Notes: a model not told the origin generated them from the letters alone. A stretch of DNA of 61,706 bases, filler included, from Hausera hauseri (GCA_046269625.1; 13 parts of 13 records of this genome joined end to end with filler, not necessarily neighbours in it), one strand, 5' to 3'. Shown: positions 4,171 to 44,248, numbered from the whole stretch's first letter. Program-made: numbers and translations.

Positions 4171-4355
4171 CAATTTGAATGGATTCCAGAGGAAACACCA
4201 ATGGAAAAGAGAATTCGACATCTAACGTATTTGTCATATGAATTGTCTTCCATTGTGACAAAACTGAATCAGATTATTTCATCAGTCACCATTTGGATAA
4301 ATAAAGATTTGTAAATGTTATGTAAATAAATGTTTCCTTATGTTTTTCTCATTAA

Positions 4356-4600: not shown

Positions 4601-4911
4601 TACTCACAGCCAACGGTAAGTAGGCAATCAATCTTAAAACAGTCAATACCTCATCATAATTCTCTTAACTATCACGTTTTACCTCGTAAACGTTCAAAGG
4701 ATAATGTCGGTAGTTAGTCACAACTCAATGTCGACAATCACGATTTCGTATCTTCAGTAAAATCACTAAACAACACCATTTACTCAAATAAGGTCTTTGC
4801 CACGACCGTTCTCCATCAAATCCCACTCGATTTCCCACCAACAATCAACCAACATTCACCAAGTACATCGGTTCATCGTTACTCCCAGTATTCCGACAAA
4901 TACCCGTTAAT

Positions 4912-8811: not shown

Positions 8812-9379
8812 ATGTGACGATCGATAGCGCACATCAGTGCACATCTACTGGTGCAAGTGCAAGCGTGCAGCACTTGTGTAAGTGTGCAAAAATCAATAAT
8901 ATTGGATTTACGATAAAGCTAAAATCTATGATTAGCACTCGGCACCGGGTGCAATTGGTAGTGCATGAAGTTGTGTGTGAATGTGCAGTTAGAATTTAAA
9001 TCGATTGATTGGTTTTCGAATAATTTCCAAGTGGGGCAGAACCGCTACAGACCTTTCTGCCATAAATTTTAAATCAATAATCTCAAAATGGCACATGTAT
9101 AGACAGGTGCAGTAGACGATGCATTTTCGATCAGTGCACAGTTCGAGTGCGGTGTATTTATTGATCAGTGTGCAAGAGCACTTTTTCACTTTACGCACTT
9201 TTGCAATTGTGCAGCGTAGGATTGATGGAATTGATCTGGATCACGTGCAGACGGATAGAGCACATCGAGATGCACCTTTATAGGTGAGGTGCAGTGCAAA
9301 AGCATGTGTGCAAGTGTGCAAAAATCAATAATATCGAATTTCCGATATTTCCAATATGGATGATTAGCACTTGTGACCG
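8812..9379. repeat. GTGCA/TGCAC-rich interspersed repeat (MITE-like); related pieces at about 57710-57830 (inverted) and 59430-59590
   Basis: Internal repeats GTGTGCAAAAATCAATAAT..ATGATTAGCAC recur in three places on two contigs. Confidence 0.7.
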
Positions 9380-9479: not shown

Positions 9480-12400
9480 GCATTAGATCGCAAATTGTTG
9501 CCGACTGTAACGCCGCAACAAAAGCTTATGGTATGCCAGAATAGGGTACAGCAAAAGGGTGAATCGGTAACCCAGTTCGCATTTGCGTTGAAGAAGCTTG
9601 CTAATAGTTATATTAGTACATTAAGGATAGCCAACGTAGCTAAAGCCAAGACAGATGCGGAACGTGACGCCACGGAGTAGGCCTCACCACCAGATTTAGA
9701 TGTTATAATGACGACTCAGCTAATAAATGGTATTTAATGACGAGACTTAGTTAAACAATTGATTTTGGCTAGACCTGAAAATTTTGAAGGAACGTTACGA
9801 CTATCTCAAGATTTAGAAATGGCGCTAGATAGAAACGCCAGATATAACAAGAGAAACGACAGGAATAACGACCGGAATGATAGAAATCGCAACGATAATT
9901 GCGGAAGAGGCGACAGACGATTTTCGTGGAATAGAAATAATAATGGCGGTTACAGAAATGGCAGAGGTAATAATTATACTAATACAAACATATCAGACTC
10001 TAATTGGGATAGGAATGGAGGAAATTGAAAAGGCTCGAATTACTCGAATCAAAACGGTGATAACCAAAATAACGAAAATAGACGAAGTGCCGAGAGTGTG
10101 CAAAATTTGTCAAATCAGTATGGTAAGGGTATAAATAGATCTAAGTCACCACTGAATGATGATGGTCGACAGAGAGTCGGCAGAAATGGGAATTTGGTCT
10201 GTTTTACTTGTGGTAAAGCAGGACACATTTTGAGGTCATGCCCAAATCCGCGTAGCGTTTCATTTACCGAATCAAATAAGACTAGTATGATTAAAACTAA
10301 CAAGAACTTAGAAGCAAAGTATGGCGTTCGTGGATATACAGGCACTATCATCGATATACAGGATTTGAGAAAATTCCTGGATGCTCAGCCAGACACTACG
10401 AACTTACAAATTTTGACGGCCAGAAGAGAATACGGGGATAAGTTGAGATTACTAGAAGTGTATCACGGCTTAGTAGAACCAGAAACTAAATACGAACACG
10501 TGATAGCACCCAAACGAAGTGAAATGACACGGAAAAAATGTATTCCAACAAGCACTAAACCATCTGATAAACTAGGCACATCGACGGCAGTCGAATTAGA
10601 CGCAGAGACTGAGTTTACAGCTGAAAAAGTAGCTAAGCTTACCGAAGATGATGCAGCAGAAAAAGAATTTATGGAACAGTTAATACTTAAAATTATGAAA
10701 AAGAGAAGCCAGAGCCCTTCATTAAAAGCGAAACGTAGAAGCCGTTCCCGCTCCAAAATAATCAGAGGGAAAATTGAAGGAACGGAAAAACCGAACGTCG
10801 TTGTAGGAGACGACACGGGTCCTAATCTGAATACACCATAAATTGGTTCACCTACAACCGTCAGAAAAGCGGAGTCTATAGAGTCAATTAACGAAATTAA
10901 CGAGATATGTCCACTTCATGCTAGTGAGGAAGAAACAACGAATACTGACGATTTCGATCCCAAGAAGTGGAAAGTCCGACACTCATGGAAAAACGCCAAG
11001 GAATTACGAAAAGTGAGAAATAAACTCTATGAGTCGGAAATCTTACAATGTGATCTAGAAAGGCTTAAACAAATCAGGTAACAGGTAGATATATCCGGAA
11101 AAGAGCAACAATACTCTGAAAAGTTATATAAAAGTTTGAAACTGCGTAGTGAGGGGAAATTTTCTGAGGAAACTGATTTAGAACAACCCGAAGAAGTCTC
11201 AACCGAAGTGTTGTTAAAATGGAAGCAGGAGTTAGAATCATGGATAAAAAGTGGAGTAGAATTTTCGAAAGGATGGAGTAAAAGTGAAGAGAGTGTTGAT
11301 GTAAAAATTACCAAGGCTCAAACGTTATTATCGACTTTGGAGGAAAAACCCAAAATTGAAGAGAGTAGTCCGTAATTTAGAAATTATGATGGATGAAATT
11401 CGATACGCAGTGTTTAAACGACTTAAGAAAAAACCGGTTAGTAATCGAACTAATATCGACTTAGTAGACATTTCCCCCTTAATGGGGATGATTAAACTCA
11501 CATTCGCCGTATATAGACGATATACGAATTTAGAGAATCGTATTAAAATAGAAAATAAAATACAAGCACAGATTTATGGTTTGAGAAATCTAATTATGTT
11601 CCCAAACAACGAGGAGACTCAAAACGTAATTAAGGCTTGTATCGTAGAATTGGACGAGTACAAGGATGAGTTCAGTTATGTCAGACGAGTTATGAATTTC
11701 TTAAAAGGACCAGACGACGAGTTAGAAGATGCTTATAATATGCTATATAAAGCCATAATTGCGAAACCTGTAATCGCAAATCAACTGCCGGAATGGTCCG
11801 AATTAGTAACCCGGCTGACAAATTGGTAAAAGACCGTAAAACACAATTTCCGCAAAGTGATCCAATGGTGAAGAAGCAATTAGAGAAAAGTCACACAATT
11901 TAGCCACGTTGCGAATAGAAATAGACATCCGTACTCAATTCGAAGCACTACGACAACTAAAATTTATGGAACCGGAACGGAAGCGTCGACGATGGAGGAA
12001 ATCTACAAATTGACCGAAGAAACCAACTTCACGGAGAAACGGTATATGATTTACGATGTAAATTCAAGGTTAAGAATTGTCCGACTAGAAGGGATTCAAT
12101 ACTTAACCGGGAAATCAATCGACGAAATTTCTGCACAAGAAATTGAAATCCTGAACATTTGTCCGGGGCATCAAGATACGCTAACGGATGCGGTAAAATT
12201 TTTGCACAGACCTCAAGAATGGATGGCCGGTTCAAACCAGAATTTCCATACCAAGTTGATAGAAATAGGAAATGACTTACATATTAGTTTTCAGGAGCAC
12301 AAGTTCGTAAAGAAATTATCGGATGCAATGGACCCTGATTTAAAGCTTATAAATGAGCTGTATGGGCTAGAATACTTATTAGTGGGAATGGCAGAAATTA

Positions 12401-13957
12401 GCAATGAGCAGTTGAAGCAGTTTATGCTCAAGATACAGAAAGTAGAAGAAATATGTATAAAGACAAAACAAAGAGAAACAAGGTTAGATGAAATAACAGA
12501 AGAGCTCGGGGTCTATCGTAATAGATATGCTTTTACCGAATCCGAGATTAAGAATAAACGAGAATTTGTACAAAGATGGCAAAAGGTAGTGATTCTTGAA
12601 TTAACAGATTATCACCAAAAAGGACTGATCGACTCTAACGAATTCGGTGAACTATTGAAAATAATTAAATATGCCTGCGGAAATGGAGTAGGTTTCCGAA
12701 CTACGAAAATGAAAGAAATACAGCCTAAATTAAAGGAAATTCGAGAGAACATTCAAAGAGCCAATACGGCTCTGGTGGACTACAGACTTCCAGATGTCGG
12801 AAACAAACCGGAATGGGATGCATACTTCGATGAGGTACTCGCCGGAAAAGCTACGACTCCAGTACAACTAAACGAAATACAAACATGTCCGCAGGACAGG
12901 AGGTTTAGTGTGGAGATGCTAATGGATTCAGCGTTAACTGAAAAGAATTTGAATGAGTTAATTAACGTAAATATTACTGAGAATAAATTACGACAACTCA
13001 TTCCAACTCCAATTAAATTATCTAGCCAAAACACGATTTATAGTACGGCGCCGAAACTTTTGATAAGGAAGTACGCTAAAATCTTGGGGGCTAGACCAGA
13101 AGTGATGATAAAGGTGATGGTGTCAACCGAATGGATGGACGAAAAGGAGTGCGAGTTGACTACACATTCCTACGTAAAGGACGTAAGAAAATGGCTGGTA
13201 AACAGTGGTGGAACAAGCGAGTTAAACTACAAATTTTATTTTAGAGGTAGAATATTAGATCACTTGGAACAATTAATAGACGTCGAGATTACTCCTGATG
13301 AAACGAATTGGATAGTGGTAGTAATAGTTAACGAACAGACAAAAGAAGTCGCTATACGTAAAGCTAAAACAGAACAATGCGTATGACAAATCATGGGAGT
13401 CCGAGACGCTGCACTATATTTTGAGTATTTACAAACGGACGGAGATAAAGAACAATACGATATAAATTTAGTACCACTAAGTGAAGCAACCACTAAAGGT
13501 TCAAGACCGAAACGCACAGTAGGCAGACCTAGAAAAGTGCGAGAAAAAGTGGATTACAATGGAGAGTTAATTAGAGAATTGAGGCAGATGTCGATTCCAA
13601 CCCTTAGCACTGAGAATGAGAAATTAAGCGAGTTAATGAGAAATTTAATACGAATTGTAAACTATTCTAGTCTTCGAGGTGATGTACTAAATGATAAAGA
13701 AAAGATAATATTTGATGCAGCTAAGATGATGCGAAGTTCGCGTTTTAAACTGTCGAAAAGCATTTTAACGGATGAATCGGTAATTTAAAAGATTATGGTA
13801 GAAAACACGAATGAGGAATTGAGAAAAGTATTGCTATACTTAGCTATCAAAATGAATCCTAATCGGGAGGGTGAAATCAATCGGGCTGTAAGCTTAGCAC
13901 GGGGAGCAGCAAAAAGAATGCATTGCGAAGTAAATTTGGCGAGACTAATTGACAAGG
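9480..13957 (+). mobile_element. Giant LTR retroelement, copy 2: gag C-terminus, zinc knuckle, orphan region, UBL, AT-hook
   Basis: Retrotransposon Gag motif RVQQKGESVTQFAFALKKLA, an N/R/G-rich linker and CFTCGKAGHILRSC (CCHC). ORF pieces at 9495, 9759, 10098 and 11136 share one frame; those at 11356, 11992, 13393 and 13795 share another. Confidence 0.88.
13105..13330 (+). CDS. Intact internal ubiquitin-like domain within the 11992-13386 ORF
   Basis: MIKVMVSTEWMDEKECELTTHSYVKDVRKWLVNSGGTSELNYKFYFRGRILDHLEQLIDVEITPDETNWIVVVIV, about 76 aa, with no terminal GG. Confidence 0.7.
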
Positions 13958-14057: not shown

Positions 14058-17000
14058 TTTGGTATGTGTCAGACGTTCGATTCCATCTATGAACTTCTCC
14101 CTGCTGTAAGTACTAAATGTCACTTAGCGTGACCTGTTAGATGTTACGGGTGCTTGTGGAGTTGTTTGAGGGAGAGATGCTTTGGATTTTGTGGTGTTTT
14201 GGGAAGATGCTTCATGAAAAGGCAAAAATTGAGAAGAAACTGAAGAGTGGAGTGGATCGAACGAAGAAGGCGAGGCTGGAGATGAAAGCAAAACGTGCGA
14301 CAAAAGTGAAGTGAGTGGTGGATGTGCAGACGATGACGGCAAAATAGGTGGCGAAGGAGCAGTGGACGATGATGGAGGTGAATAGATTTGATTGTGATTC
14401 GACAGTGATTGCTGCGACGGATCAAAGTCATCGAGGAAATTTGATGATAACCCGAAGCAAGAGAAGTTAGAAATAGGATTTGAAACAGTGCTGTTATCCT
14501 GGTCATCGTCAACGAAGAATGCTGGCTTAAGATAAGAAATGTGTATATTTTGAGGTCTGTCCTTATGTAAAGTAGTAGCGGTGTGTGAAGAAAGGTTGAG
14601 TAGTTTGTAAGGGTCAACGTATTGAGGCCGAAAACCAGACGGCGAAGGGTCCTTCAGCCATACAAACTTGGCTGAGTATAAGATTTGTCTTTTATTATGA
14701 GACGGCAAAAGGCGTTTAAGTTTACATCTACAAAATGGAACTGTGCCACACGAATAGCGTCATCTGATGGACTATCATCGAGGTTGGAGAGTTCAAACAG
14801 GGCACGAATTGGTGTCCCAAGGAGAGCTTCAGCCGGGGCACAACTTGTGGTGATGGATGGCGTTTCGCGCCAACCGATTAGGATAAGAGGAAGAATCGAG
14901 GTCCAATTATGATTATTGTTTGCCAGGATTTTTAAGGAAATCTTTACGGTGCGGTGAAATCTCTCAAGAAGATCATTTGCTTGGGGAGAGTACGGTGTTG
15001 TATGAAAATGAGCTATCCCCAAGTGTTTTACCAGAGATTTAAGAAGATCAGCTTCAAATTGCAGACCCTGGTCCGTTATAATGTGGCGTGGTAGGCCAAA
15101 ACGGCTGACCAATATCTTGATATATGCATCTGCTACTGAGTCAGTGTTGGTTGATCGAAGCGGAACAGCTTTAGGTCAGCTGGAAGCATGATCCATCATG
15201 GATAAGATATATTGATAACCATTGTCGGAAGGTAGAGGACTCACAAGATCCAAATGCACGGTTTCAAAACGAGAAGTGCAAGGGAAGTGGTAAAGTGGTG
15301 GTTTGATGTGTTTATGAACCTTATATTATTGACATGCTACACATCCCTTGACGCAGATCTGTACATCGGTACGCATAGTTGGCCATACAACATGGCGTTG
15401 CAGTAGACAAAATGACGCTTTGGAACCCGAGTGATGAAAAGAGTGAAAGTGAGTGAAAGCTGTCTTTTTTAACGATGGAGCAAGAATGATTTTTTTATTA
15501 GTCGAGTTGAATGTGTCGTAGGCGATGCCATCAATGATCTCAACCGATTGAAAGGCTTGGAGAATATCAGATAGTGGCTGATTACTTCTCAGGACTTCAG
15601 AGGAGAAAATTGGCTGAACTGTAATTGAGTTGACCGACCGCGACAGAAAATCTGCTACTAAGTTTTCGGTGCCAGAAATATATTTCATGGAAAAACTATA
15701 TGTCGACAGATATGATATCTGACGTTCTTGCATGGGTGATGGCTGTTTTAACGTTATGATATGAAGTAGAGGTTCATGATCTGTTTGGATGACGAATTGA
15801 CGTGATTGGAGCAAATGCTTAAAATTCTTTACGGCTAGAACAATGGCCAGGAGTTTACGATCGAATGTTGAGTATCGGCTTTCTGGTTGCGTAAGCTTTT
15901 GGGAATAGAATTCTAACGGCTCATCCACACCATTGTGTATTTGGTATAATATTGCACCAGTGGCTGTGGTTGAGGCATGGGTAGTTAATATTAGTTCCGC
16001 GTTCGGTTTTGGTAAAGCCAGGATTTTAACGGATTTCAGACCATCACGAAGGCAATCAGATTGATTAACTAGATCGGGATTCCAATGGATTAGTTGTGTT
16101 TTCTTTCAGAATTAGAGGTGTGCGAAGGGTGCCGTTAGTTCGGAGCAGTGTGAAACGTATTTGTGTACGAAGTGCAGTGTCCCTAAAAAATTCCTCATAT
16201 ATGTAGTGGTAATCGGTAATGTCACATTTTTCAATTGTTGTAAGCGATCAGGCTGAGGCGAATGACCTTCGGGAGTAATTATGTGGCCTAGGAAGTTGAC
16301 GCGTTTCTGGAAGAAATTGCATTTGTCAAAATTAATTTGCAGATTGCTTTGATGCAATCTGTGGAAAATAATTCTAAGGTGCTCATGATGTTGTTTGATG
16401 GAGCTTGAAGTGACTAATATGTTGTCTATGTATAAGTGAGCAAAATCAAGACCAGAAAGAACGGTGTCAATGTGGCGCTGAAAGGTCTGAGATGCACTAA
16501 GTAGGCCAAAAGACATGAAGATGTATTTGTAAAGGTCAAATGGTGTGATGACAGCAGTTTTTGGAATGTCATCAGAGGCAACAAGAATTTGATGGTAGGT
16601 TTTGTGCAGATGAATGGTAGAATAGGTATTGGTGTTATTGAGGCTATGAAGAATATCCTTATTTAATGGTAGTGGATAGGCATCTGTAATAGTTAGGTTG
16701 TTTAATTGTCGATACTTGCCACATGGCATATAGGTACCATCTTTCTTTACCACTACATGAAGAGGAGAAGCCCACGGTGAATTCTATCTTCCAATGATGC
16801 CAAACCTTTCCTGTTTATTAAATTCCTGTTCCACAGCTTTACGTCTGCGTGGCAACAAAAGTCTAACCTTTTATTTGATAGGCCTCTGATGCTCCGTTAC
16901 TATATGGTGATAAGTTGTGGATGGAGGATTGAAGTTGACGTCCCTTTTGACTATGCAAAAACAAGACGCTGTGATGTATGATTTAAGATCGGAGTCTAGA

Positions 17001-19304
17001 GATAAGAATGAATGAGGCATATCATCAAACGAGACAGTTTCAGTAATTAACGAAGAACAACCGGCATTGCCACTGTCAATATTCAGTTTGGATTTTTATT
17101 TTAAAATTAATCTGTGATTGTTATACTCGTTATCATTTGACGAGGTATTCAGTATATTTACAGAAGAGTGCTTTGGGTGTTCGCTAGATTGTCTGCGAGA
17201 CATGCGTTTGAAATAACGATAGAGTTCTTGCTCAGAAGACAGCCGTATTTGCAACCGACCAACAGATCATGTGCGGCAAGAAAATCTGAGCCTATTATTG
17301 GAGATTTAATATTGGCCACGTGGAACTTCAAGACAAACTTATCTGGCAAGTTGGCGAATGTGAAAGTCAGTTCCGTGGTTCCTGCAACGTGCAATGGTTG
17401 ACCACTGGCAGTGAAAAGCGGTGGACAGGAAATTATAGTGAATGTAGGAGTGAAGAACAATGGAAGGAGAGAAAAGGCAGCTCCTGAATCTATAAGGAAG
17501 TCGATATGTGAAGTGTCTCTGCATAGCAGTGCAGCTTTTAACAGAAAGACTGCCGAGGCGGTGTTGAAACGGCCAGAAGATTGAGCGATATTGCCTGCGC
17601 CAGAATGTGCCGTAAAATCTGGCGGCGTTATTGGTTTTTTGAAGGATTTGGAGGAAAAGGAAGAAGGGGAAGAAAAAATACGAGATTTACCTTTGTAGTG
17701 TTTACAACCAGGTACACATGACCTGGCCTGTGACTGATATTTGTTGTGGTATATGCAAATAGGGTTGTTTATAGCGTATCGCTCGCTATAGAATCGACAG
17801 CCCAAGAAGCATTTCCTTGCCTCCTTTCAAAAACGCTTATGATAGAAGCACGTCACATGTCCGCCAGGTGAGATGGACCGGCAGGAGTGTCTTGAAGCGC
17901 TTCACTGCCTTGAATGTCTGGTGTCACTTAGTCGAGGTCCATTAAGATTACTTAGTTGGGTAGTAATAGCCGAAATTGACTGCTGTAACTTGTCAAATTG
18001 TTGCTGCATCATTTTGAATTGTTGAGTAAAAATGTTGTGTCTGTAGTTGAGCACATGTGGTTGCAGCCGCAATAGGGAAAGAAATGTTGGTATGAAGAAT
18101 CTCAAAAAATTTGTCAACCATTATTGCCAGTTTTTCGGTAGCAGTGGACTCATCGCCAACGGTGAGTAATTATCTGATTGAGGTGGGCAAATATGACGAG
18201 AAATAACGGCGAATTAAATCCGCGTTAATCGTAGGTGTCACTCCTAGAGCGCTAGGCTGCAGAATGGTCGTTTCGAGAAAATCGGATGGCTTTTGGTTTC
18301 CTGTCGCATGGTCGTTAAAATACTTTTGTATTATATTGCCAATCGAAGGATCAGTGACATGCAGTACAGCTTCACAGAGTGTCTCGTCAGGTGTCGAGGA
18401 TTGGAGTAGCTCGGAGATGTTACTTGTCTGCTGCTTGACATTGACAAGAAGAAGGATTAAAAGACTATTGGCTCGAACAAAAAAATTAGTAATGTTTTTC
18501 GATTTTAGCCACTGTTGGTGGAATTGGAGCCATGGTTTGCTGGAGTTGTTTTTGTGAAGGAAAAATTTTACACAAGGTAAATTTAACAAACCTCGTAATT
18601 GTTGGGAGTGTGGCAAACGATAGATGTTGACTGTATTTGTGGATTTATCATCCGAGAAGGATGGATTGGGATCCGATCCACCCCGGAGGCGAAAATGGAG
18701 CATGAGATGGATGACTGGACATTTGTGGCATACGAGACACAAGAGGGAGTCGACAGGATGTACAGTCATACCTTGATGTGTGAAGTAGAAGTTAGAAATG
18801 TTGAGTGAGTAGGATAAAGAGGTGTATAGTAGCTGTCCTGTGGCGCTGAGTGGAGCTATAACGGTTGTAATGTGTTGATTATAGCTGAAGACAAGGAAGG
18901 AGAGTTGCAGCGAAGTAATCCCAGGAAAACGGTAAAATGCATGGGAGGCTTGGGCGGTGTCCTTATGTGTTAACAAGATGTACCGACGTGCAGCCGGGGT
19001 AGTGGTGGCAAGTGATGATTGGGATAAAGGAATATTCAAAGATGTTAAGCTTAAAAAACCCTTTAAAATGAAAAATGGTGTGAGCTAAGAAGGATTTGTA
19101 TATGCGCACTGGTGAGGGCAAATCAGTGAAAAAAATCTCACCAAGCTGTGTCTGAATATTTGAATCCTGGATGTCAAATTTGGTCACATCTGAAGTGTTT
19201 TCCCCACTGGATTATTCTTATTAATCAAAACGACGTCGGTCTCGTCAACACTCCTTTCCTTTGTCAAATAAATTGTTACCGAGAGACTTGGAGAGAATAT
19301 TGTG
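14058..19304 (-). mobile_element. Near full-length CsRn1-like Ty3/gypsy element: LTR end, UBL-gag, CHCC motif, protease, RT, RNaseH, integrase (decayed)
   Basis: CIYHNKYQSQARSCVPGC (CsRn1-type Cys-His motif), FLIDSGAAFSLLP, RT and RNaseH motifs, integrase TDQGLQFE and TTPYSPQAN. The putative LTR end CACTTCA (about 19191-19197) is the inverse of the TGAAGTG LTR start at 49272. Confidence 0.93.
18677..18919 (-). CDS. Ubiquitin-like module ending LHFRLRGG, fused to the Gag N-terminus
   Basis: About 81 aa, in frame with Gag in ORF 18170-19039. The C-terminus matches ubiquitin LHLVLRLRGG. Confidence 0.8.
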
Positions 19305-19404: not shown

Positions 19405-20225
19405 GTATATGATACAAGATCTTTGATCGTTTATTTTTTACTTTGGTTAGGGCTGTGACCTTGCCTATTACTTTTAGCTGATTACCGTTTATTAATTTGT
19501 GATTTATTTCGCTGCTTTCGGTCAACTTCAGTTTTAAAGTTTCCATCGTGGTTTTACTTAAATAATTTTTTGCTGCTCCTTTATCTATTATTGCTTCTAT
19601 TTTGACCTTATTTATAATTATAGCTGTGGTTGCTGTGTTGTTTGATCCATCTTCTATGAATGTTATTGTTGTATTCTTATCTTCCAATTGAATTCTACTC
19701 CTTAATGGATATTTACAGGGTGTTGTTTGCTCCAAATTGCATTCCTCAGCTACTGGTCTACATCGTTGCACACTCATCCAAGAGGTTTTATTAGGTTAGA
19801 CAAATTCTGTAGTTCTACGCTTGATACGATTATTTGTAATACTTTGTGTAATCCTTTATACGACAATTTCAATTTTGGGCTTTCGCCTGGTTTACAGGTC
19901 TCATTTAGTATATTGACTAAGTCTCCGATTCGATATACATGGGATTTTGCTTTCTTATCATATGATCCTTGTAATTTTCTTGATGGTATTTAATTTTTAA
20001 CCCGGTTCTAATCCGTGCTTCTTGTAATCTTTCTTGCAGGATTGTTGTGATTGTGGTGGTCTATATTCTAAATCGATTGGCATAATATCTCGGCTACCAT
20101 ACAGTAAAAAGAATGGTGATTCTCCAGTTGTCAGATTGGGACTTTGTCGATAAGCACATACACAAGGTTTTATATACAGATCCCAGTCAGCTGGATGATC
20201 ATATGCGTAACTAGATAAAATAATC
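19405..20225 (-). mobile_element. Ty3/gypsy-type integrase C-terminal half followed by a retropepsin-like domain
   Basis: Manual translation gives DWDLYIKPCVCAYRQSPNLTTGESPFFLLYG, YDKKAKSHVYRIGDLV, KLKLSYKG (GPY/F-like) and KYPLRSR, then IEAIIDKGAAKNYLS. Confidence 0.8.
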
Positions 20226-21059
20226 TAAAATTGTTCACTAAAAGCTTCCACTTGTTGTTCGTACAGGGATCTAATTTATTCTGACCTTAAGCGTTACCTA
20301 ACATATAAAATTTCTGAGTCTCTCTGAAGGCGAGTTCGGTGGTGGTCAGGCTACAAGTAGCCTGCACCTGGCAATTTCCAGAACGTTTAACGATTAGATA
20401 CATGACAGGTAATGTTGAGTCCTGATACATCTTAAAGTCCGTAATATCTATCAAACCATACGTCAAGTTTATTTCAATGAATCTGATGCAATCAAAATGA
20501 ACGAAAAACATCTTAAAGTCCTTTTATATAATAATTACAACAACCACATTACGAGCGCTGTTTCATATCCTTAGTACATTTTGAATTACCTAATCGCGAA
20601 TTCCTCAAATGTGATTATATGTGTATTCATTATATATATGCATATATATGTAATTAAAAATATATCTTCCTTCACACTGCGATAGTATATCGATATACCA
20701 TGCAATCTATCATAACATTTAGTTCTAATATTAAAAGTATGCATGACGTTCCTGATGTTAATTGTTATTGTACTTCTCCAAATCATTCTACTTACTTCAT
20801 CGGTAATATACCCATCATTTTAATGGTCAACAAATCTTTATTAATATTCGTGGATCTTATTTGACCAATAATAAGGAAACCTTAACAATATCATTAACAA
20901 TTTTATTATTCAAATAAAAGCAATAGATTAGTACAGTTTTTATTTAAATATTATCAATAATATATTATGAATAGAATAGGAGAAACAAAATGATCGAATT
21001 ATCACTACTAATCAATATTATAGAAAGAAATAATTTAATTTATCGTTAATTTGTCTTAA

Positions 21060-23610: not shown

Positions 23611-24243
23611 TTAAGAACCTCCAACATTTTTCCCCATTTTGAAAAAGATTCGGTCCTCCGGATCACTCTGGGTACTGACATCAACGAAGCTGAGATTGCG
23701 GAGTCTAATAATCAATGTCGCATCGTTTATCGGGTTCATCCAATGGCATAATCCCTGGGTTCGGTTGTCGTAGGTATAGGAGAAGTGGTAGTAGACTAAT
23801 GGTTGACGGCAGTAATGGCATGATATACCGTTCTGAAATGTCATTTGGAGTGCATCATTTGGATCAATTGATTGTAGAAATTGGGATCGGAGTTTGTTGA
23901 AACATGTTGCACACAGAGTGTGGTTACATTGGAATTGAACTACTGTTATTCTTTCGGTAAGGCAAATTGTACATTCATAAGTAGGAAGCTGATCATAAAA
24001 GAGAATTTGCAATGTTGCCCAAAGATCAGGTAAAGCTAGGTCAGAAATAAGATCAACTCGGCATTTACTAAGTACAGGAAACCAATCTTGTTGCAATGAT
24101 ATTGGCAATGGAGGACTATGAGATATAGTTGGTGTAGGAGTTATTGAAGGTGAAGGTACGGGTAATTCAGATAGTGGTCTAATGACACTTTCAGGATGAT
24201 AACGTGAATGGGGTATTGAAGATGGCTGTTCTAAAAGAGACAT
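23611..24243 (-). CDS. Intronless C3HC4 RING-finger protein (putative E3 ligase), 210 aa
   Basis: CTIC-x11-CNHTLCATC-long insert-CHYCRQP, a Pro/Ser-rich N-terminus, and ATG to stop intact. Confidence 0.8.
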   Translation of the reverse strand: MSLLEQPSSIPHSRYHPESVIRPLSELPVPSPSITPTPTISHSPPLPISLQQDWFPVLSKCRVDLISDLALPDLWATLQILFYDQLPTYECTICLTERITVVQFQCNHTLCATCFNKLRSQFLQSIDPNDALQMTFQNGISCHYCRQPLVYYHFSYTYDNRTQGLCHWMNPINDATLIIRLRNLSFVDVSTQSDPEDRIFFKMGKNVGGS

Positions 24244-26295
24244 AATGTTTATATGTTGTAAAGATACTTTGTATANNNNNNNNNNNNNNNNNNNNNNNNN
24301 NNNNNNNNNNNNNNNNNNNTTAATTAATTAANNNNNNNNNNNNNNNNNNNNNNNNNNNNNNNNNNNNNNNNNNNNTCACGTAATTTAGATACAATACAAG
24401 CATAAGTAGACATCAAAACGCAATTCCAAGCTTTACAACGACTAAATTTTATGATGACGAAGCAAGTGACGACGATACTGAAAGAGATTTATAAAATGAT
24501 CGAAGAAACGATCTTTAGAACAAAGCGGAATATGACTCGCGCTTTCTGTCCAAGATTAAGAAACATCCGACTAGAAAGAGTCCAACATTTAACAGATAAA
24601 GCTATCGACGAAATTTTAATGCAGGATATCGAAACCCTAGACATTTGTCCGAAACATAGAGGAACTTTAGCGGAAGCAATAAAATTCTTGCATAAACCAC
24701 AAGAATGGGTGGCCGGAACAGATCAGAATTGCCATACCGAGTTAACAAAAATAAGAAACGACCAACATATTAGTTTCGAAGAATCTAAGTTCGTAAAGAA
24801 ATTGCTGGATGCAATAGATCCCGATTCGAAAGCCATAAATGAGATGTATGAATTAGCCTTCCTATTAGTAGAAATGACACAGATTAATGATAAAAAGACG
24901 AGGCAATTGATGCCCAACTACGACAAGTCGAAGAAACGTGCGTTAGAACCAAACAAATGACAACGAGGTTAGACGAATTAGTAAAAGGGTTCGAAATCTA
25001 TCGGAACAAATATGCTGTTACCGAATCAGAAATTAAAAATAAGCAAGAATTTGTACAAAGATGACAAAGAAATGTAATTATTGAACTGACTGATTATCAC
25101 CAAAAGGGATTCATCAATTCTAATGAATTAGACAAATTACCAAAAATGATTCAGTATGCTTGTGGGAACGGAATAGGATTCTGGACCACACAGATGAAAG
25201 AAATACAGCCAAGGTTAAAAAAAATTTGAAAGAATGTACAAAGGACGAATACAGCACTAGTAGACTATGGACTTCCAGATGTTGAAAATGAACCGGAATA
25301 AGATGCGCACTTAGATGCGATAACGGCCAAAAATCCTGTATCTCCAGTACACCTAAATGAAATAGAAAGGTGTTCGCAGAACAGGAGATTCAATGTGGAG
25401 ATGCTCCTTAATTCAGCTCTAAATGAAAAAGATTTAATTGAACTAATTAATGTAAACATTACCGAAAGTAAGTTAAGACAACATATTCCGACTTTGACTA
25501 AATTATCCAGTAAGAGCACAGTTTATAGTACGGTGCCGTAACTTTTGACAAGGAAATGCGCTAAAATCTTGAGGGCTAACCCTAAAGTATTGATGAAAGT
25601 AATGGTATGCCAAGACGGTACAGTGTGTAAGACAAATCATGGGAGTCCGAGATGCTGCAATGTATTTCGAGTATTTACAAACAGGTGAGGACAAGGAACA
25701 ATACGACAAGAATTTAGTGCCACTGAGTGAAAGAATAACCAATGTTCCAAGGCCGAAACGCCCAGTCGGTAGGCCTAAGAAAACGCGAGAAGAAGTCGAC
25801 TACAATGGAGAATTGATTAGAGAGTTGAGACAAATGTCGATTCCTACTTTCAGCACAGACAATGAAGAATTAAGCGAATTAATGAAGAATTTGTTACGAA
25901 TTGTAAATTATTCAAGCCTTCGAGGTGACACGTTAAATGATAAAGAAAAAGCAATATTCAATGCAGCTAGAATGATGAAAAGTTCACGTTTTAAACTACC
26001 AAAAAGTAACTTAACCGATGAATCGGTAATCGAGAAGATCATGGTGGAAAACACCACTGAATAATTAACAAAAGTATTACTATACTTAGCTATCAAAATA
26101 AACCCTAATCAAGAAAATGAAATTAATAGAGTTAGAAGCTTAGCACAAACAGCAGCAAGACAGCTACCCTGCGAAGTAAATTAATCGAGACTATTTTATA
26201 AAGAAGACAAACGACCCGGAAATACCAATAGGCTGAAAGATATGTTATGTAATTTGGTAACAACCGATAATAATAACCGGAAAATCGAATCAAGT

Positions 26296-28412
26296 TGGCT
26301 AATTACCTTACTCCCCTTGATGATGCTAATAAAGCACATAGGCGCTGTTACCGTCTACGACTGCGATACGTTTAAACTAGGGCAGAGATATTCCCTAATG
26401 GATTTGGAAGTGTGCGAAGATGCCAGACCGCACAAGTTAGAAACGAGAGAGAAGAATTATTTTCTGTACCAACAAGAAGAATTGATATCATTAGATGGAA
26501 TGGAATGTATGCTGAGACGATCTCGTAGCATTTTTCACTGTGGACTAATACACGGACATTCTTAAATAATCAAACCAACAACCCATTCAATTCCGATGAA
26601 CTTAGAACGCCAGCACAACAAACAGACTAAGGAGTCCGGAAGAGTACAAAGGGACAGTATGCAATTGGAAATGCAACCAGGAAAGATAATTAGGCATACA
26701 AAGTGGTGGTTGGAAGGTTAGACATGCATAACGGACATTGTAACGGAGCGGAATACGACACCGGAAAAGGATTACAAGCAAACGTAGTGGTCGCGGATTT
26801 CTATGAATCAGAGATGCGAGTACAGAAAGTAATGTTCCATAGTGTCACCAAACTATATACCGAGAATAAAAAATGCCATTTACAAGATGGAACCTGTGCT
26901 TTTAGAATTTCTGTTATAATATGGGAACCTCCCTCTGGAAGAAGCTGTAATTTTATCAAAATTAAGGAATTGAAATTTAATGAAACTACCGGGAAGCGAT
27001 ATGAAGATAAATTTGATACCAATTCAAGGACACGCGAAGACGTATTAGAACATCCTGCACCTACTATATTAATCTCTGATCAGCATTGGCTAAAATTTAT
27101 TAAAAAAAATGATTTCTCGTTGTGAAGTAGTGATGTTCGCTACTAACTATGAGGCGTTTTTCGTCGCAAGATGTTCGAATTGAGGATTATCTGAAAAACA
27201 AAGGTGATTATTTCTATTACAAAGGGCAGATCGGAATAACCGAATTATATCATAAAATGATAACAAATGATTGTAAATTGGATAGGGAAATAATAAAGAC
27301 AAAACTGGCCCTTATTTACGCTAATCATTAATTGGCATCCCCAATAATTCCTGAGAGAAAGGATTTTTGGTCGAGTTACTGGTGAAGTCCTATTGACTTA
27401 CGAATGTGAGAAAAAAGATGTACCAATCACCGTTGAAGAAAAACTCTGCATGCAGGAACTTCCCGTTATTTACCAGAATATTCCAAGGTTAACTATGCCA
27501 CTCACTAGAGTGCTATTAGACAATGTAACTGAACCGACAATCCTTAAGGATTTTAAAGCAAGCTTAGGAGAACCAATTTTTAGACGTAGTGAAACAGATT
27601 GGATCAATTTGCCAAATGGAGGTATTACTGCTGCTCCAAATAAATTAACAGGAACAAATCTTGTAAAAGGAATTACATACGACAAATTTCAAGACACCTC
27701 GTCAAAAGGCATATATAGGTCTAAGGAAATCAAAGCGTTCAGACAATTCCTCGCTTTTCCGCGACAGCGGACACACGAATTAAACCGAGCCATGGCCTCC
27801 GTAGTAGACGATACTCGATATCAGGCTAAATGGGAATTCTTGCTTGGCGTAAATCATTATCAGCGAGTAACCACAGAAATACTCTACAAAATTTGGGGAA
27901 GATTTTTGATTTTTGGCCAAGCCGCATCCGGATTCTTAGCAATATGTATTCTGATACAAATGATTAAGGCAGTCATCCAAGCAGTAATAAATAGGTATGA
28001 AATATTTACATTGACCGGATTTTCATGTAAAATAATGACTGCAATCATAACGCCCTTTGGAAAGTTCTTAAAAGCATACGAAGAAAATAGATGGAAATCG
28101 GACGTAGAACGACATGCCAGTTATTATAACCGTAAACGAAAAGGAAGGCCTATGTTCTTATACAAGCGGAAATGTACAAAACCCAATACGTGGAGAAATA
28201 ATTCAGATGATGACGAGCCTAAGGGAGGAGAAGTACTTTCAGGAACAAACAGACATAAGACGTATTCTGCCATTAAAACACCATTGCCTATGCTACCCCC
28301 TACCGCTCCAGTATATAAAGACTGTGACAAACGATCAATGAGTTTATATAAGACAGAAATCTATAAAAGGACGATTAGTTTAGAAGACCCTTATGAAGGA
28401 ACAAAACGTTAA
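26296..28412 (+). pseudogene. Chuvirus-like envelope glycoprotein, copy 3, with transmembrane region and PTAP-containing tail
   Basis: Same cysteine pattern as copy 1, WEPPSGRSCNF, GIYRSKEIKAFRQFLAFP, FGQAASGFLAICILIQMIKAVIQAVINRY..TGFSCKIMTAII and LPPTAPVY. Confidence 0.8.
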
Positions 28413-28427
28413 GGAATCCTACGGAAA

Positions 28428-29178
28428 ATGAGTTATCGACAGCTCCTCAACGACCCCAGAATATTGTATTTCCCGAGAGAACCTCGGAATATAGAAACTA
28501 GATCACCTCTGTGGAAAAATCTAAAGTTAAAAACCTTCCAGAATATAGAACCACACACTGACAATCGAGAACCATTAATTAGTACACATGAAACGGAAGA
28601 ATTGAATATAGAAAACAATGAATTATATCCAAACGGAGAATTAAAACAGTTGTCGGAGAATATAGTATCCTCTCCAAAAATCCAAAACAACGGACATAAA
28701 ATATCAACGACTAAACGCCCAAAAGTTGCATCAAACTGTTTCGGCACAGTAATGGAAGGAAGACCCTTCGCCAAAATCATTATTGAAGATTGGGAAGTTT
28801 ACGCACTAATCGACACAGGTTTTGAGATGTCTTACATTAAGAATGATTCATTACCTCAAACGCTGAGAGAAAAATTATATCCACCATCTACAAAAGACAC
28901 AGGAAGCACAGGAGCTTTTGGCGAAATGTCGAAACCGATGTTTAAATGGAACCCAGAAGTTCAAATAGTTGGACAGTTTTTCCGTCACAAATTTGCACTT
29001 ATGGAACAATTAACTGACGACGTAGTTTTAGGATGTAATCTACTGAAAAGACTACCAAATATAGCAGTTGACTTACAAACAGAAAAGTTAATAGAAATCA
29101 GACAAAATAAAGGCGTAAAGAAATTTGAAGAAGTGTGGATACCAGTCGATGAAAATATTCCACCGAAAACAGAGATAA
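28428..29178 (+). CDS. Retropepsin aspartic protease (start of pol), truncated by the contig end
   Basis: RPFAKIIIEDWEVYALIDTGFEMSYI and DVVLGCNLL. Same frame as the glycoprotein, separated by one TAA. Confidence 0.88.
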
Positions 29179-36738: not shown

Positions 36739-39160
36739 ATGGAGCTTTCACCAGATATTCGTGAAAATATTGAGATACTTGAAGGTGAAAGTTATTCCTA
36801 TCGCCGAATTGCTGCTCGATTATGTGTCAGCCTTAGTTCTGTACAACGTGAAATTTCTTGACAGTCATATACAGGTAGTAATGTACGAAAGAAACGAATT
36901 GGGATACCCAGAAAAACGTCTGTAAGAACTGACCGTCATATCCGTCAAATAGTGGTTACAATCAGTATGCTGACATGTTTCCCCTAAAAAGTTTACAACA
37001 AAAGAAAGTGTTTCAATTCTTTAATTTAAAAAAGTATAGCAACGGAATTTCGGAACAAAATTAAACAACACTTACGGTTAATAAAGTAACAATCAAATTA
37101 CAGAGTTCAGGCCGTTTTCAGTACAACAGACAATCTTTTCTTTGAAGTGGGGGAATAGATTTTTCAAGTAAATTGGAGTAAAGGTTTTTGCTTTCTGTTT
37201 GATTCTTCATGCAAGTTGCGTCCGGTTTTTGACGGTTTAGATATTTTCTTATACCTTCAATTTAAGTTGGGCCCAGAAGCGCTCAATTGGGCGGATCTGT
37301 GGTGCACAAGGTAGGTTTTTCTCTTTGGGATTGAATGGTATTTTTTGCTTTTCAACCACTCCATGTGTCACAGCCATAGTGACACGAGGCTAGGTCAGGC
37401 CAAAAGATGTAATGTCCTCTGGAATAGATAGTGGAGAGAAATGATAATAAATGCTTTTTTAAGAATTTATTCACGTAAACTGTAGAATTGAGAGCAAATG
37501 AATTTGACTTGCGAATAAACAAAGAAATTCAAAGCTTGGAAACGGCAGCCCAAACTAAGATTTTGGAACAAAATTTATAGCGGTATTTCAAGGTAGCTCA
37601 TCAAGAACATTGTTTTTATCTGCTGTTGAGATGTAAAGTAAAATACAATAAAATAGAATTCATCATCTAATACAAACTCGGTTCTTGAGTGCTCGACGAC
37701 AAAATCCTTCAGAACTTGAATGAGCTCTTCGTGACGAATGAGTTGGTCAGGTGAAACTTTTGAAGCCTCTTTACGTTTTCTATAAATAATTTTTTCTTTA
37801 TGAAGTATTCGGGATATATGTGACTTTGAAATATTAAATTTCCTTCCAGGTTTCGAAGGCTTTGGCCTGTCTTTCAGATGGCAGCAGAAACAAGGCGTTT
37901 ACAACGCCTTTAATACTTTTTAGAACTTTTTCTAACACTTCCAGGCTTTCTCATTACTGTTGCCCTTTCTTTGTAACGTTTGAAAACCTTGCAAACACCT
38001 TGCCCTGTCATTTCTATGCCACCGAACTTCTTCACGGTGTCTGCTTTGAGTGGTTCAAATTTAGATGATCATTTCCGGTAAGGTCTTCATTTTCAAATAT
38101 TTACCAAACACAGCTAACAAATTTAAACAAACCTTTATTAATTCCTTTACCATCACAGTTATATTTTTCAACAATAAAATGTAGTTTAGTTAAATATTAG
38201 CGAAATTAATTTTTATTATGCGTTGATTAGTTTATAAACTTTTTAGGGTACACATGTTAGTAGCTCATTTGTGCAAGCTCAGCTGCCATCCCATGTACAA
38301 ATCCACACTTCAACAATACGCAGACGCCCGTCTGGAGAATTTGGGCTATCTGCTTATCGCCCATCTGTCAAGGCAAAGTTGTCAATCAAAAACATTCGTG
38401 ATCGCACGGCATTCTATCAAGCCCATAAAAATTGGACACAAGAACAATGGGCATCTGTTATGTTCATTGACGAGACCCTCATTCACCAATTCACACAGTA
38501 TGCCCCTTACGTACCACGACCAAGAAATCAACGTTTAAATCCCAGGTATGTTTGTCACACAGTAAAAAGTGCACCACCAGTCATGGTGTGGGGTGAAATT
38601 TTTTACAAAGGTCCAACGTAGCAAACAATCAATGCTGTTACATATGACGATATAATTAAAAAGAAGCTGCCACTAGCGATGCGCTGTACTCATTGTTCCA
38701 CTTTTCAGAACGATGGGACGTCATGCCATCAAGCCAAATCTACAAAACAATGGTTCCTCAACAACAATATCAACGTTCTCAGTCCTTGGCCTGGTTCATC
38801 ACCAGATTTCAATCCAAATGAAAACTGTTGGTTATTATTAAAGGTATCCTGCATGAATCCTACATCGTTGGAAGACTTGCGTCCAACTGTTGTCAATGTT
38901 TGGCACCGCAAAATTACTCCTGCATATTGCAAAGAATTAATAAATTCAATCCCTAGTAGAATGGCTGCCGTCATCGCAGCCAAAGGACACCATATTAAGT
39001 TTTAATTTGAACTTATATTACTGTTGATATTGTCTATCAAACTCTGTCATGTATGTTTAATATATATCTTTGTTTTTTCAAAAACTATTTTGTGAATACC
39101 TGTTTTAAATAATGAAATCAGTAGTTTACAAGTGTATTCAGACTTTTACACACCATTGTA
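36739..39160 (+). mobile_element. Tc1-like transposon, decayed and interrupted by a nested element
   Basis: HTH region SYRRIAARLCVSLSSVQR..GIPRKTSVRTDR, then WASVMFIDE, VMVWG, FQNDGTSCH and WPGSSPDFNPNENCW. 3' TIR CTTTTACACACCATTGTA. Confidence 0.88.
36968..38262 (-). mobile_element. ITm DD37E-like transposon nested in the Tc1 element
   Basis: TIRs TGCTGACATGTTTCCCCTAAAAAGTTTA and TAAACTTTTTAGGGTACACATGTTAGTA. Minus-strand FWPDLASCHY and PQIRPIERFWAQLK. Confidence 0.8.
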
Positions 39161-40290: not shown

Positions 40291-40469
40291 CATTTCAATT
40301 ATAGAAATATACAACAAAAATGACTTCAAATAATTCCGTTTGTAAATTTTGTGAAACAGGTCGCATAATTATGAAATCAGACAATAAATATGCATGGAAT
40401 GAAAGTACAATTTGTAAATGTTGTATTAACATTATAAAAAATATACAATACAAATGAATAATCCGGAAT

Positions 40470-41625
40470 CGACTGCTGTAACTCGTCAAACTGTCGCTGC
40501 ATCGATTGCAATCGTTGTAAGAATGCAGTATTGTCAGTGTATGAAGGTGCGTGAGCGGTTGCTGCAGCTACCGGTTGTTGACTATTAGATTGCAATATAT
40601 CAAAACTTTTGTCTGCCAATAAAGCGAGATTTTCAAGGGCACTAGAGTCGTCTACTACAGTGCCGAAAGGAAATACCGACGAAGAAGATCGGCATTTTTT
40701 ATAGGAGTGACGCTTAAGGAAATCAACTGAGAGATTGCAGTTTTCAGGAAGTCCGATGGTTTCTGATTTCCGATGGCATGCTCATTGAAGTATTTTTGAA
40801 TTATGCTGTCAATGGAAGGGTCGGTTATATGCGGAACTGATTCATAAAGCATATCATATGGACTTGAACAAGCAAGTATGTCAGCAAGATTGTTGATTTG
40901 CTGCTTGATGTTAGCTGGAAGTAATAGCAGCAAACTGTTTGCCCGCAAAAGGAGCCTGTAATATCATGGGCTTTAAGCCATTGCAAGTGGAACTGCAACC
41001 AGTACGACTAGAATTCGTCTTATCTAGAAAAAAATCCGTGCAGGGGAGATTTGGAGATGTAGTTGGTGTGGTATTGGCAAGACGACGACCAGATCTGGTC
41101 TTTGTGGAGTTTTCCACATAGGAAGGATCGGCGTGCAATCCACCCCGTAAGCGAAAATGGAGCATGATACAGGTGTATGAACGTTCGTGGCGTACGAAAG
41201 ATAGGAGGGAGTCTGAAGGATGTACTATAAGCCCTTTATATGTTAAATAAAAATCCGAAGTGCTATGTGATGAGGTCAAAGCGTCATATAAGACTTGTGC
41301 TGTCTCGTTGAGTGGAACTTGTAAGGTTGTGATGTGTTGATTGTAACTAAAGACCCGAAAAAATTGTAATGAGCTCATCCCAAAGGAACGATAAAATGCA
41401 CGGGTGGCCTGGGCGGTTACCTTTTGGATTAAGAAGCGGTTCGAGCGTACAGCCGGGATAGCGGTGACTAAAGATAATTGGGATAAAAAGATGTTAAGTT
41501 TAGAAACCCTTTAAAATGAAAGATAGTTTGAGCCAGAAAGATTCCGTAAATGCGCAGAAAGCGGTCACATTGGTGGGCGCGAATCGATAAAAGAAATCTC
41601 ACCCACTTGTGTTTAGACACCTCTG
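40470..41625 (-). mobile_element. CsRn1-like element, second 5' copy: leader plus UBL-gag, 3'-truncated
   Basis: Collinear homolog of about 17970-19150; GNQKPSDFL and NADLLRRYF are shared. Confidence 0.9.
41139..41378 (-). CDS. 80-aa ubiquitin-like module ending LHFRLRGG at the Gag N-terminus
   Basis: ATG to GG is exactly 80 codons. DFYLTYKG lies at the position of ubiquitin RLIFAG. Confidence 0.82.
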
Positions 41626-41862
41626 ATGGTTTCATGTCCGCCGGTCGATCGGTGAGGTTGATGTTGACTCGCGTGATGTCCTTAGAATCAATACGGTGGT
41701 CTGGTCCAGAGTTTGAAATCCAAATACCTTGTCCAGTGATGCGATTTCTTTCGACAGCAGCTGTTCAATTTTGGATAGATTGAAACTTTTGAGTTTTTCT
41801 TGTTCAAGAGTTTGAACTTTATAATTAGGAATTTTAATCGGAGCCTCTGGTGGCAGAACAAC

Positions 41863-42120
41863 GGATGTCAAGGAACCATTTATCTGGAAATCTAGCATCA
41901 AGTCAGCAACTTGTTTTTTGAAGTCATCGGATTGAATCAACACGCCAGTTTTAAATTTATCTTTAGACCTTTTAATCATTCGTTCGGCATGCATAGTCAA
42001 TTTCTTCATGCAATTGTGCAAATAATACAACTGTTCAGTTGCCATCGATAGCAAAAGATTTGCGAGTTTCTGTTGCCAATCACTACAATGTGCGGTAATA
42101 CTGTTTTTAGACATCGACGT
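41863..42120 (-). pseudogene. DNAH2: Two joined fragments of an axonemal dynein heavy chain (DNAH2-like) within mosaic ORF 41632-42327
   Basis: KNSITAHCSDWQQKLANLLLSMATEQL and ERMIKRSKDKFKTGVLIQSDDFKKQV resemble recalled DNAH2 segments HCNEWQNKFATLL and MLKKHKEKFKTGLIHSADDFKKK. Confidence 0.7.
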
Positions 42121-42541
42121 TAGATTCGAATTTGACGAGACAAATTCAAAATACGTGCAATACTGTGAAATTGATTGGGTGTACGTAATAAAAATTGAAA
42201 GTTTAATTGAAAATCCATTCAGGTCATGCAAAATGGAGTAGTAACATTTTTGCAACGAATCACTTGATTCTTTCAATATATCGACATTCAAAACATTAAC
42301 ACAATTGATAAGATGTTTGGCATACATTGGGATTGTTTTTGAAACTTTGAAGTAGTCAACTTTGAGTTGAATTGCCGGATTTTCTTCTACAACCTTATGA
42401 GATTTGATATAAGGAAATATACTAATAGTCGACTTATAAAAATACCATGATTATTTCTTCAAAGGAGCATATTCGTGTACCCAAGCAACTTGATCTTCTG
42501 AAGGATAGAATAAACTTTCGTAAAGGATGCTTTGACCGCTT

Positions 42542-44248
42542 TTAGAATATGATGGATACTTTGACGTGTCGAGAGACTTGGTGATTTCTTGATTGCTTGT
42601 CAATTCTTTTTTTCGGAGTTTTCTGATTCGACTTACGATCAGTTAGTTTGCTTTGCAATGACAAATTGTGCATCTCATCACAGGGTTCCAAAAACGCCTG
42701 CTGGTAATAAATGAACAAAAACTGAAACAACAGTTTCCTAGCTTCCTCCATGGAATAGGTTTGGAAATCAGACAAGAAAAACTGAGAGGATGAAGTGAAG
42801 CTGACATTGAAGTAGCCATCACATGACGTTAATTGGATACAAGGCTCAAAGATGCCGAGTTTAGCACAGAGGCTGAAAATAGGATGGAATTCAGATGGGT
42901 AGTCGTTGGTGGTTATCATCGTTGTTCTTGGAAACAAACTGTGACAATGCGCAATGGAATCCATCTGTGTTTTACTTTTCCGTTGACTAATAAAGGAATT
43001 ATGTGGCAGATTATTAGGCCGTTTGTTTTCAAAGAACTCTTTTGGTGGAGCCGGTGACACTTCATCAAAAGAAGCATCAGTTGTGACCATTTTTCGTCCA
43101 TAAAACTCATAACTACAACTATAATTTAGATTTGGTGCAACTTTGGTATGAATTCTATGTTTAAGTTTGGATTTTGTTGGAAACACATCAAAACTTTCGT
43201 TGGTGACCTTATGGACTGGTTTAGGAGAATGAAGTCTCATTCCATGAGAAACATCAATTAACGTGTAAGGTGCTACTCTGTAGCATCGATTTTGATTTCC
43301 GCGAATTCGGATACCTTTAGGGAACTCCTTATCAAACAAAACTTCAATCCAATGATCACCATTAGACTTTGGTTCGATACCGATGACTACACTACTAAGG
43401 CCAATCGAAACACAATGACATTCGGAAACAAAAACTACTCTGTCTAACAAACGAAACTCGGTGATTCGATCGGGCTTTGCAGATTGCACGGTAAAGTAAG
43501 GCACGTAGAGTTTCTTAAATTCTACTTCAACTTCATTCGTAGTTCGATTATCATCCATTTTTTGATGTAAATTATCAGCAATAGCTTTCAATATTTCGAT
43601 TAATGAACTGCGAATGATTTTATGACCATTACTCAGTCGCTCTAGGCCTTTACATGACAAACTGTCAAGGTACTCCTTTAGTTCATCGCATCTTTGTACT
43701 GCTAATTCTCGATCACCATCATAACTGAAAACGTCTTCCAGTGAAAAATTATCCGATTCATTATTATTCAGAAACTCAAAAATATCAGGGAACTTCGTTC
43801 GGTAATCTTCAAGCAGTCTTACGACTTTCAAAGTATACATCCAAATCCCATTGCTGTTTTCCGAAGCCGAATCAAACGTTTTAATCCAATCAGGAATCTG
43901 TTCGTTCTTCTTTTTGTTTTTTAAATCCAAGCCGATGTTAAATCGATCGTGTTTCCGTTTCTTTCGAATGTAGTTATCAACCATTTCTGTTGGACAGTTG
44001 ATGAATATCGAACCGGTAATTCAAGAAACCAAAAACGGACTCAAATCCAGATATTCTGCAGCCTGTGACGCAGACATGTAGTCCATGTCCAATTTATCAA
44101 CGTCGACTTCACCATAAAATGGATCGTTGATAGAGTCAGTAGCTACCTTCACGACACTCTTCGTATTTTCGATAGCCGGAAAAATAGTGGCAAGTATATA
44201 TTGTGATAAAAGAATATCCAAAGTTTTTGAGCTTAAAAGGTTTTCAAA
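42542..44248 (-). pseudogene. XRN1: 5'-3' exoribonuclease 1, C-terminal portion, intronless, with one in-frame TGA
   Basis: LVS*ITGSIFI (normally SRITG), NIGLDLK, LLEDYRTKFPDIF, FRLLDRVV, VLFDKEF and LIDVSHG. Confidence 0.88.

Follow-up and report, generated by a model that had tools for sequence, protein, structure and literature searches.

The question raised by this locus is whether a viral envelope gene (env) has been built into a retroelement between gag and pol, within one polyprotein, as a first-pass annotation of the DNA had proposed. The DNA analyzed (hereafter the window; 61.7 kb) is composed of 13 fragments joined by N spacers. The preferred reading, given a probability of approximately 0.78, is that the copies found here are dead members of a high-copy, Burro-like LTR family in which a class III env lies between Gag and the protease, probably as part of a single Gag-accessory-Env-Pol polyprotein. 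By analogy with its relatives, we infer a single ORF and a gypsy-type Pol for the window's family; the host, judged from the likeness to flatworm elements, would be a flatworm.

Copies and element organization

Copies A (1-4070), B (9480-13957) and C (24376-29178) were homologous and collinear, with nucleotide identities of 80-82% (A/C), 72% (A/B) and 73-78% (B/C). Because the window consists of spacer-joined fragments, the three are read as separate loci, of diverged subfamilies, and not as one. Copies B and C together span 7,453 nt, beginning within Gag and reaching approximately 120 codons beyond the protease motif, and both ends of this stretch are fragment ends. The tiled order is Gag-CCHC, helical orphan region, ubiquitin-like domain (UBL), AT-hook-like motif and helical domain, followed by an internal signal-like segment, glycoprotein, transmembrane helix (TM), tail and DTG protease. 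The earlier description of three overlapping copies was sound as to homology, collinearity and order, but the copies come from different loci, and C lacks Gag as well as the UBL, the latter through a 239-nt deletion.

Stops and frameshifts were present in each of A, B and C, none of which was open throughout; by their sequences, they are decayed, dead elements. The potentially infectious lineage of the first-pass annotation is therefore not represented by these copies; for the family, infectivity is hypothetical. No reverse transcriptase (RT), integrase or LTR was linked to A, B or C, as the fragments stop before RT. The estimate of about 7.5 kb ahead of RT was borne out by the tiled length, and the term "giant" holds only in the sense of at least 7.45 kb before RT, because RT, integrase and LTR are not linked. 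The window also has two fragments with an RT (4171-9379 and 14058-19304), which were considered as the family's Pol and rejected, with 26-37% identity to the RT and RNase H of the relatives and a sense strand that is C-rich, not A-rich.

Gag and accessory region

All features are on the plus strand. Copy B, the sole copy covering Gag, carries the C-terminal part of Gag with an N/R/D-rich stretch (9480-10247) and a single CCHC knuckle (10197-10247; zf-CCHC, PF00098, Pfam E 7e-5). This region matched its counterpart in the relative P0006 with an E value of 2.5e-6 in a search among 156 proteins. A low-complexity and helical orphan region follows (10248-13101), with a frame switch near 11.3 kb, and then the UBL (13102-13338). 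In copy C the helical orphan region and the helices before the UBL occupy 24376-25608 (80% nucleotide identity to A 9-1146; one frameshift and four stops), and the copy alignment places the junction of the 239-nt deletion, which removes the UBL kept in A and B, at 25608-25609. A splice was considered for this gap and rejected on its length, which is out of frame. The helical orphan region of copies A and B had no Pfam or PDB match.

A ubiquitin-like domain upstream of env in A (1125-1361) and B is supported, an assignment that is weak on its own. The copy A domain reached E 0.016 with PF00240, below the cut-off, and was assigned by profile comparison; the copy B UBL by itself gave no ubiquitin match. 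Compared with P0154, the UBL scored z 13-15 (14.6 for copy B, preceding helices included), and none of 500 shuffles scored as high. With a five-row profile of two window and three relative pieces, E values of 8e-4 (UHRF1 UBL) and 0.002 (NEDD8) were obtained.

Between this region and env, copy C has a GRP-core motif (25747-25782; no family match), which we take to be AT-hook-like, and of 11 relatives checked, four have a GRP[RK] motif upstream of env. The helical domain next to it (25783-26295) holds the position of a Bcl-2-like domain in Burro and in P0001, P0008 and P0016. Homology to Bcl-2 was considered but not detected: a tblastn match to P0001 (E 3e-8) disappeared when the signal segment was removed. 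For the helical domain, z was at most 1.8 in all nine pairings, the hhalign probability was 0.1, and there was no PDB match. A structural model of the orphan-UBL-helical region had a pLDDT of 38.8.

Glycoprotein

The internal signal-peptide-like segment of copy C (26296-26346) was identified by hydropathy and stops just ahead of the conserved VxxYDC motif that opens the ectodomain, the cleavage site being placed by eye. The class III glycoprotein ectodomain (26347-27893) was assigned by PF24664 and by the fold obtained for the corresponding stretch of copy A; frameshifts, a stop and a 41-nt deletion interrupt it. The membrane-proximal region and TM (27894-27989; hydropathy 2.35) include a WG[KR]FL motif common to the relatives, and are followed by the cytoplasmic tail and linker (27990-28754). 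A retroviral-type aspartic protease (28755-29054; PF00077, E 4.6e-5; DTG at 28812-28820) precedes the fragment end at 29178. In copy A, positions 2107-4070 hold what is left of the glycoprotein, which is broken, together with the TM and the first part of the tail.

The Monjiviricetes fusion glycoprotein family (PF24664) matched four ORFs of A and C with E values of 5e-7 to 3e-28. A 379-residue piece of copy A (2216-3352), read in a single frame with X at its four stops, was folded from an alignment with 72 relatives, and the resulting model had a pLDDT of 91 and a pTM of 0.70. In Foldseek it matched chu-like virus glycoproteins (best E 2e-21, TM score 0.70, 19% identity), herpes gB (E 3e-8) and GP64 (E 1e-5); identity to the viral glycoproteins in the top rows was 13-19%. 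In a structure search without Foldseek, all nine rows at Z of 5 or more were class III fusogens, headed by HSV gB (Z 10.5, rmsd 7.0, 320 residues aligned). The env sequence profile matched herpes gB only at E 0.02-0.9. The chuvirus-like envelope named in the first-pass annotation was thus recovered by both the family match and the model, and the structural comparison of the ectodomain with class III fusogens, which had been proposed there beforehand, came out in its favour. These results show that the embedded glycoprotein has a class III (chuvirus G/herpes gB-type) fold.

Relatives of the embedded envelope

A search of 1.84 billion representative sequences with env yielded 256 matches at E values of 0.001 or less, of which 150 were listed. 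The best of those listed were long proteins with 28-32% identity, and env identity to any sequence found was at most 33%. Among 19 relatives scanned (the best or longest of the 150 listed), env was followed by a protease in one protein in 10, with RT further on in four. Three further cluster members had env-PR-RT-RH-IN (two) or Gag-env-PR (one). The env-PR-RT-RH-IN arrangement, which is the gypsy order, was found in P0002, P0005, P0112, P0151 and P0154, and the copy C protease matched those of P0151, P0154 and P0005. Gag markers were located ahead of env in P0006, P0011 and P0156; P0006 has three CCHC knuckles, a UBL-like region, a GRP motif, env and proteases, and P0008 has a weak Bcl-2 match ahead of env. 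One env relative is labelled by its source as a bacterial MAG, which is probably contamination. A word-based search for the env ORF among longer proteins, a weak method by its own note, gave no match among 1,083 candidates.

A quick tree with 86 rows placed the window env together with 15 polyprotein-embedded envs and against 70 others (SH-aLRT 91), on an unstarred branch from an unfinished tree search in which the window row was long and two rows were left out. The same tree separated the window env from the DUF5641-linked env P0040. Both A and C, and 10 of 12 relatives, have a hydrophobic segment whose end is three residues ahead of a [YF]DC motif, and a small residue was found at the presumed cut, placed by eye, in nine of the 10 relatives having the segment.

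Selection on the coding region

Comparison of env between A and C gave a dN/dS of 0.22 (0.17-0.30, 461 codons). The blocks upstream of env gave 0.08-0.26, with 0.13 for the orphan region and UBL of B versus A. The TM-tail block, which is outside the pooled env figure, had position counts of 24/21/56. One env block (A 2456-2857) had no third-position bias (15/18/14) and may have been shared by A and C through recombination. These dN/dS values show that purifying selection acted on all of the coding region prior to the decay of the copies, env having been kept in the same way as its flanks.

Frame continuity and alternative explanations

The glycoprotein had been described as being in frame with the region upstream, and this was confirmed in copy A, where a frame (1504-2205; ORF to 2283) that leads from the AT-hook-like motif, by way of the helical domain and the signal-like segment, to the N-terminus of the glycoprotein is stop-free across the 5' junction. 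It had also been described as being in frame with the protease. In copy C the ORFs at 27348 and 28413 do share one frame, but a stop codon (28410-28412) lies between them. This codon reads otherwise in at least 54 contigs of run X1 (depth 2142/4544) and in nine contigs of run X2 (42.5/42.5). At the frame switch of copy B, at least nine X1 contigs differed in length (depth 268/531), and no X2 contig differed at a depth of 5.6. Contig coverage extended to all 30 bins in B and likewise in C, and 18,691 (B) and 9,705 (C) pieces were placed from X1; the family is therefore abundant, which suggests a high-copy element. X1 is not independent, because it may be the window's own source sample. No RNA data set containing the sequence was listed, which carries no information about expression.

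These breaks bear on an explanation, judged unlikely, in which the gene order is the same and the ORF is not single: Pol would be reached by readthrough or frameshifting after the env tail, or Gag would lie in a separate frame. In its favour, C has its stop and B its frame switch, approximately half of the X1 depth carried no listed difference at either break, and the gap from TM to protease (305 residues) exceeds that of six of the seven relatives measured. However, the table of contig differences gives one alternative letter per place, so that the X1 figures are minima, and the entire X2 depth differs inside the stop codon. The copies also hold many further random stops, and the relatives are open across both the env-protease and the Gag-orphan junctions. 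The proposal of one polyprotein is supported for the family, by the distant intact relatives and by the many other copies that lack the breaks, but for no copy in the window.

A nested origin, in which a separate endogenous chuvirus element or a BEL/Pao fragment was inserted into a gypsy element, would account for the chu-like virus glycoproteins among the top structural matches, and chuvirus-like G is known in BEL/Pao elements (as cited in the available part of PMC13524379). It is nevertheless very improbable. The 5' junction is the same in two diverged copies, two of the listed contigs bridge the tail and linker within the complete bin coverage, the viral glycoproteins are distant in sequence, and the distant relatives carry env, PR, RT and IN in one ORF; with env selected like its flanks, the glycoprotein is not a nested insertion. 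Slightly more probable than the divided ORF, and still doubtful, is the retention of env for a purpose other than extracellular infection, such as the fusion of neighbouring cells or the transport of capsids in vesicles, by an element that copies itself mostly within the germ line. The portions of the literature searched hold no particle or transmission data for such elements, and the BURRO1 passages of PMC8532177 cover expression and silencing only. The purifying selection seen on an ectodomain that is complete and has a signal-like segment and TM is in keeping with a working fusogen, and infection from soma to germ line is argued by analogy in the part of PMC13524379 available; neither point separates the two uses. 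The single-polyprotein element with an embedded class III env is retained as the preferred reading.

Proposed processing of the polyprotein

Processing by signal peptidase at the conserved hydrophobic motif is plausible from the sequences. The polyprotein would be synthesized in the cytoplasm until the internal hydrophobic segment directed the ectodomain to the ER; there, its link to the Gag-side product would be severed by the signal peptidase of the host. Transfer would be halted by the TM, so that the tail and protease, and in the relatives RT, RNase H and integrase, would remain cytoplasmic. Given a single internal signal-like segment and a single TM, the predicted topology puts Gag and the accessory region in the cytoplasm, the ectodomain in the lumen, and the tail and Pol again in the cytoplasm. 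The element's protease would then release the Gag domains and Pol. Gag, Env and Pol would be made in equal amounts, both halves staying at the membrane at first; enveloped particles, to judge from the kept fusogen, would fuse with neighbouring or germ-line cells. This model is reasoned from the established biology of viral polyproteins. If it is true, a one-to-one supply of Gag, Env and Pol would set these elements apart from retroviruses, which splice env and ration Pol. The present locus is poorly suited to testing it, since its copies are dead and a catalogue of intact planarian elements already exists.

A more far-reaching reading is held only tentatively, at well below even odds. It would make the element a deeply diverged lineage of gag-env-pol proviruses, possibly of flatworms outside the three free-living genera sampled, whose enveloped particle is formed from one polyprotein cut by signal peptidase in the manner of flaviviruses, with Gag on the leftover signal anchor and Pol on the Env tail. 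A conserved helical protein of 300 residues and a post-Bcl-2 domain, both without known relatives, would be part of it.

Comparison with known systems

BEL/Pao elements carry env at the 3' end, and the mosquito elements with a chuvirus-like glycoprotein are reportedly named Anakin. The window element has the glycoprotein family PF24664 in common with the mosquito elements (Dezordi 2020, as cited in the available part of PMC13524379). It differs in its protease, which is of the RVP/gag-asp and not the Pao type, and in having env ahead of the protease, whereas theirs is behind the integrase.

The implied novelty of the gag-env-pol order fails, because this layout has been published for Burro (PMC6431247) and for GAG-ENV-POL errantiviruses (PMC13524379). 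According to the portions of the 2019 paper available (PMC6431247), Burro-1/GYPSM1 are giant gypsy-like LTR retrotransposons of planarians, with an in-frame env between gag and pol, a total length of more than 30 kb with LTRs, and an ORF of approximately 4,900 residues (4,873 codons). In the window, env likewise lies in frame between the accessory region and the protease, apart from the one 3' stop that many contigs lack, and copies A and B have a Ubi/SUMO-like domain upstream of env. By analogy, we infer that the element works like Burro. Burro has a BCL2-like domain just before env, where the window has a helical domain in which Bcl-2 homology was not detected, and two or three CCHC knuckles where the window has one. 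Burro also carries MATH/TRAF, BIR, ankyrin or AAA domains and a dUTPase; the 7.45 kb of tiled sequence yielded no Pfam match to MATH, BIR, ankyrin or AAA, the remainder of the element lying outside the fragments. Its env was likened to the gypsy F-type Env in the available part of PMC6431247, whereas the window env is class III by fold. With one knuckle, no detectable Bcl-2 and a full size beyond the fragments, the window element was not filed as Burro proper.

In the parts of PMC13524379 available, errantiviruses of Platyhelminthes, Nematoda and Bryozoa have an ENV solely of the HSV/gB type, along with the order GAG-ENV-POL. The accessible supplement gives nine flatworm elements, six of them S. 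mediterranea elements that reach as many as 215 intact copies. Four of Smed_errantivirus_1-6 measure 14.5-14.9 kb, a length near that of the Burro ORF of 4,873 codons, and are for this reason likely Burros, a name absent from the portions available. The window shares the order, with Pol represented by the protease only, and a class III, gB-like ENV with signal-like segment and TM. By eye, the 'Platyhelminthes_C1a' rows of the paper have the cysteine spacing and the closing TP..S..G/LRF.K..C..ATNY motifs of window domain I-II. The Smed errantiviruses are, as far as the available record goes, intact, multi-copy and placed by RT, in contrast to the decayed window pieces without linked RT.

The available main text of PMC13524379 has neither "polyprotein" nor "single ORF" and does not treat processing, and no paper on signal-peptidase processing of such elements was found in a search of the openly accessible literature. 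What is added here is a strongly diverged family (env identity of at most 33%), a structural demonstration of class III for an embedded env, and a conserved internal signal-like cassette that hints at how such polyproteins would be processed, a subject not treated in the available parts of PMC6431247 and PMC13524379. Pending RT, the window element is best filed as a diverged, decayed member of the GAG-ENV-POL group with gB-type ENV.

C-rich gypsy family and other features

Four decayed pieces were assigned to a C-rich gypsy family, at 4792-7671 (+), 14127-19084 (-), 40380-41510 (-) and 48391-49164 (+). The family is without env and is distinct from the env-bearing, A-rich Burro-like element; in two of the four pieces a ubiquitin-like stretch ending in RLRGG was recognized by eye ahead of Gag. 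Two host-gene-like pieces, 41635-44020 (-) and 49838-52741 (+), between them carry XRN1 D2/D3 and SH3-like domains and CCP1-like TPR. Because they are intron-free and adjoin pieces of the C-rich family, the evidence suggests that they are captured retrocopies.

Also present in the window were an open frame of 221 residues that encodes a C3HC4 RING finger (23614-24276, (-); E 1e-6) and transposase relics of Tc1/mariner (38247-39002, (+)) and hAT (54996-56691, (+)).

Env divergence

Comparison of two diverged loci of the env-bearing element showed that the env domain I/II block (2456-2857 versus 26697-27098) is less diverged than neighbouring blocks and, unlike them, lacks codon-position bias. 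Recombination between subfamilies is possible.

Candidate 3' regions

A 681-residue open frame at 46247-48289 (-) is A-rich, as is the env-bearing element, and may represent the 3' accessory region of an element of that type. It contains a DEDDh-type nuclease-like region (judged by eye), a T-rich stalk, a TM and a second hydrophobic stretch. This layout is similar to that of the surface-protein tails that follow integrase in P0002, P0005, P0151 and P0154, distant relatives with env embedded in a polyprotein; sequence scores against those tails were no higher than those of shuffles (28 or more of 300), and Pfam gave no firm match to the frame.

Several aspartic-protease-like domains were seen within single polyproteins of the relatives P0151 (six Pfam stretches), P0006 and P0005, some of them behind integrase.

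At 19406-20251 (-), the C-terminal end of an integrase, now decayed and 35-44% identical to integrases of the relatives, precedes a YPLRS motif and another domain resembling a protease (PF13975, E 1e-4). This stretch is a candidate 3' piece of the env-bearing family, and its order is that of the P0005 and P0151 tails.
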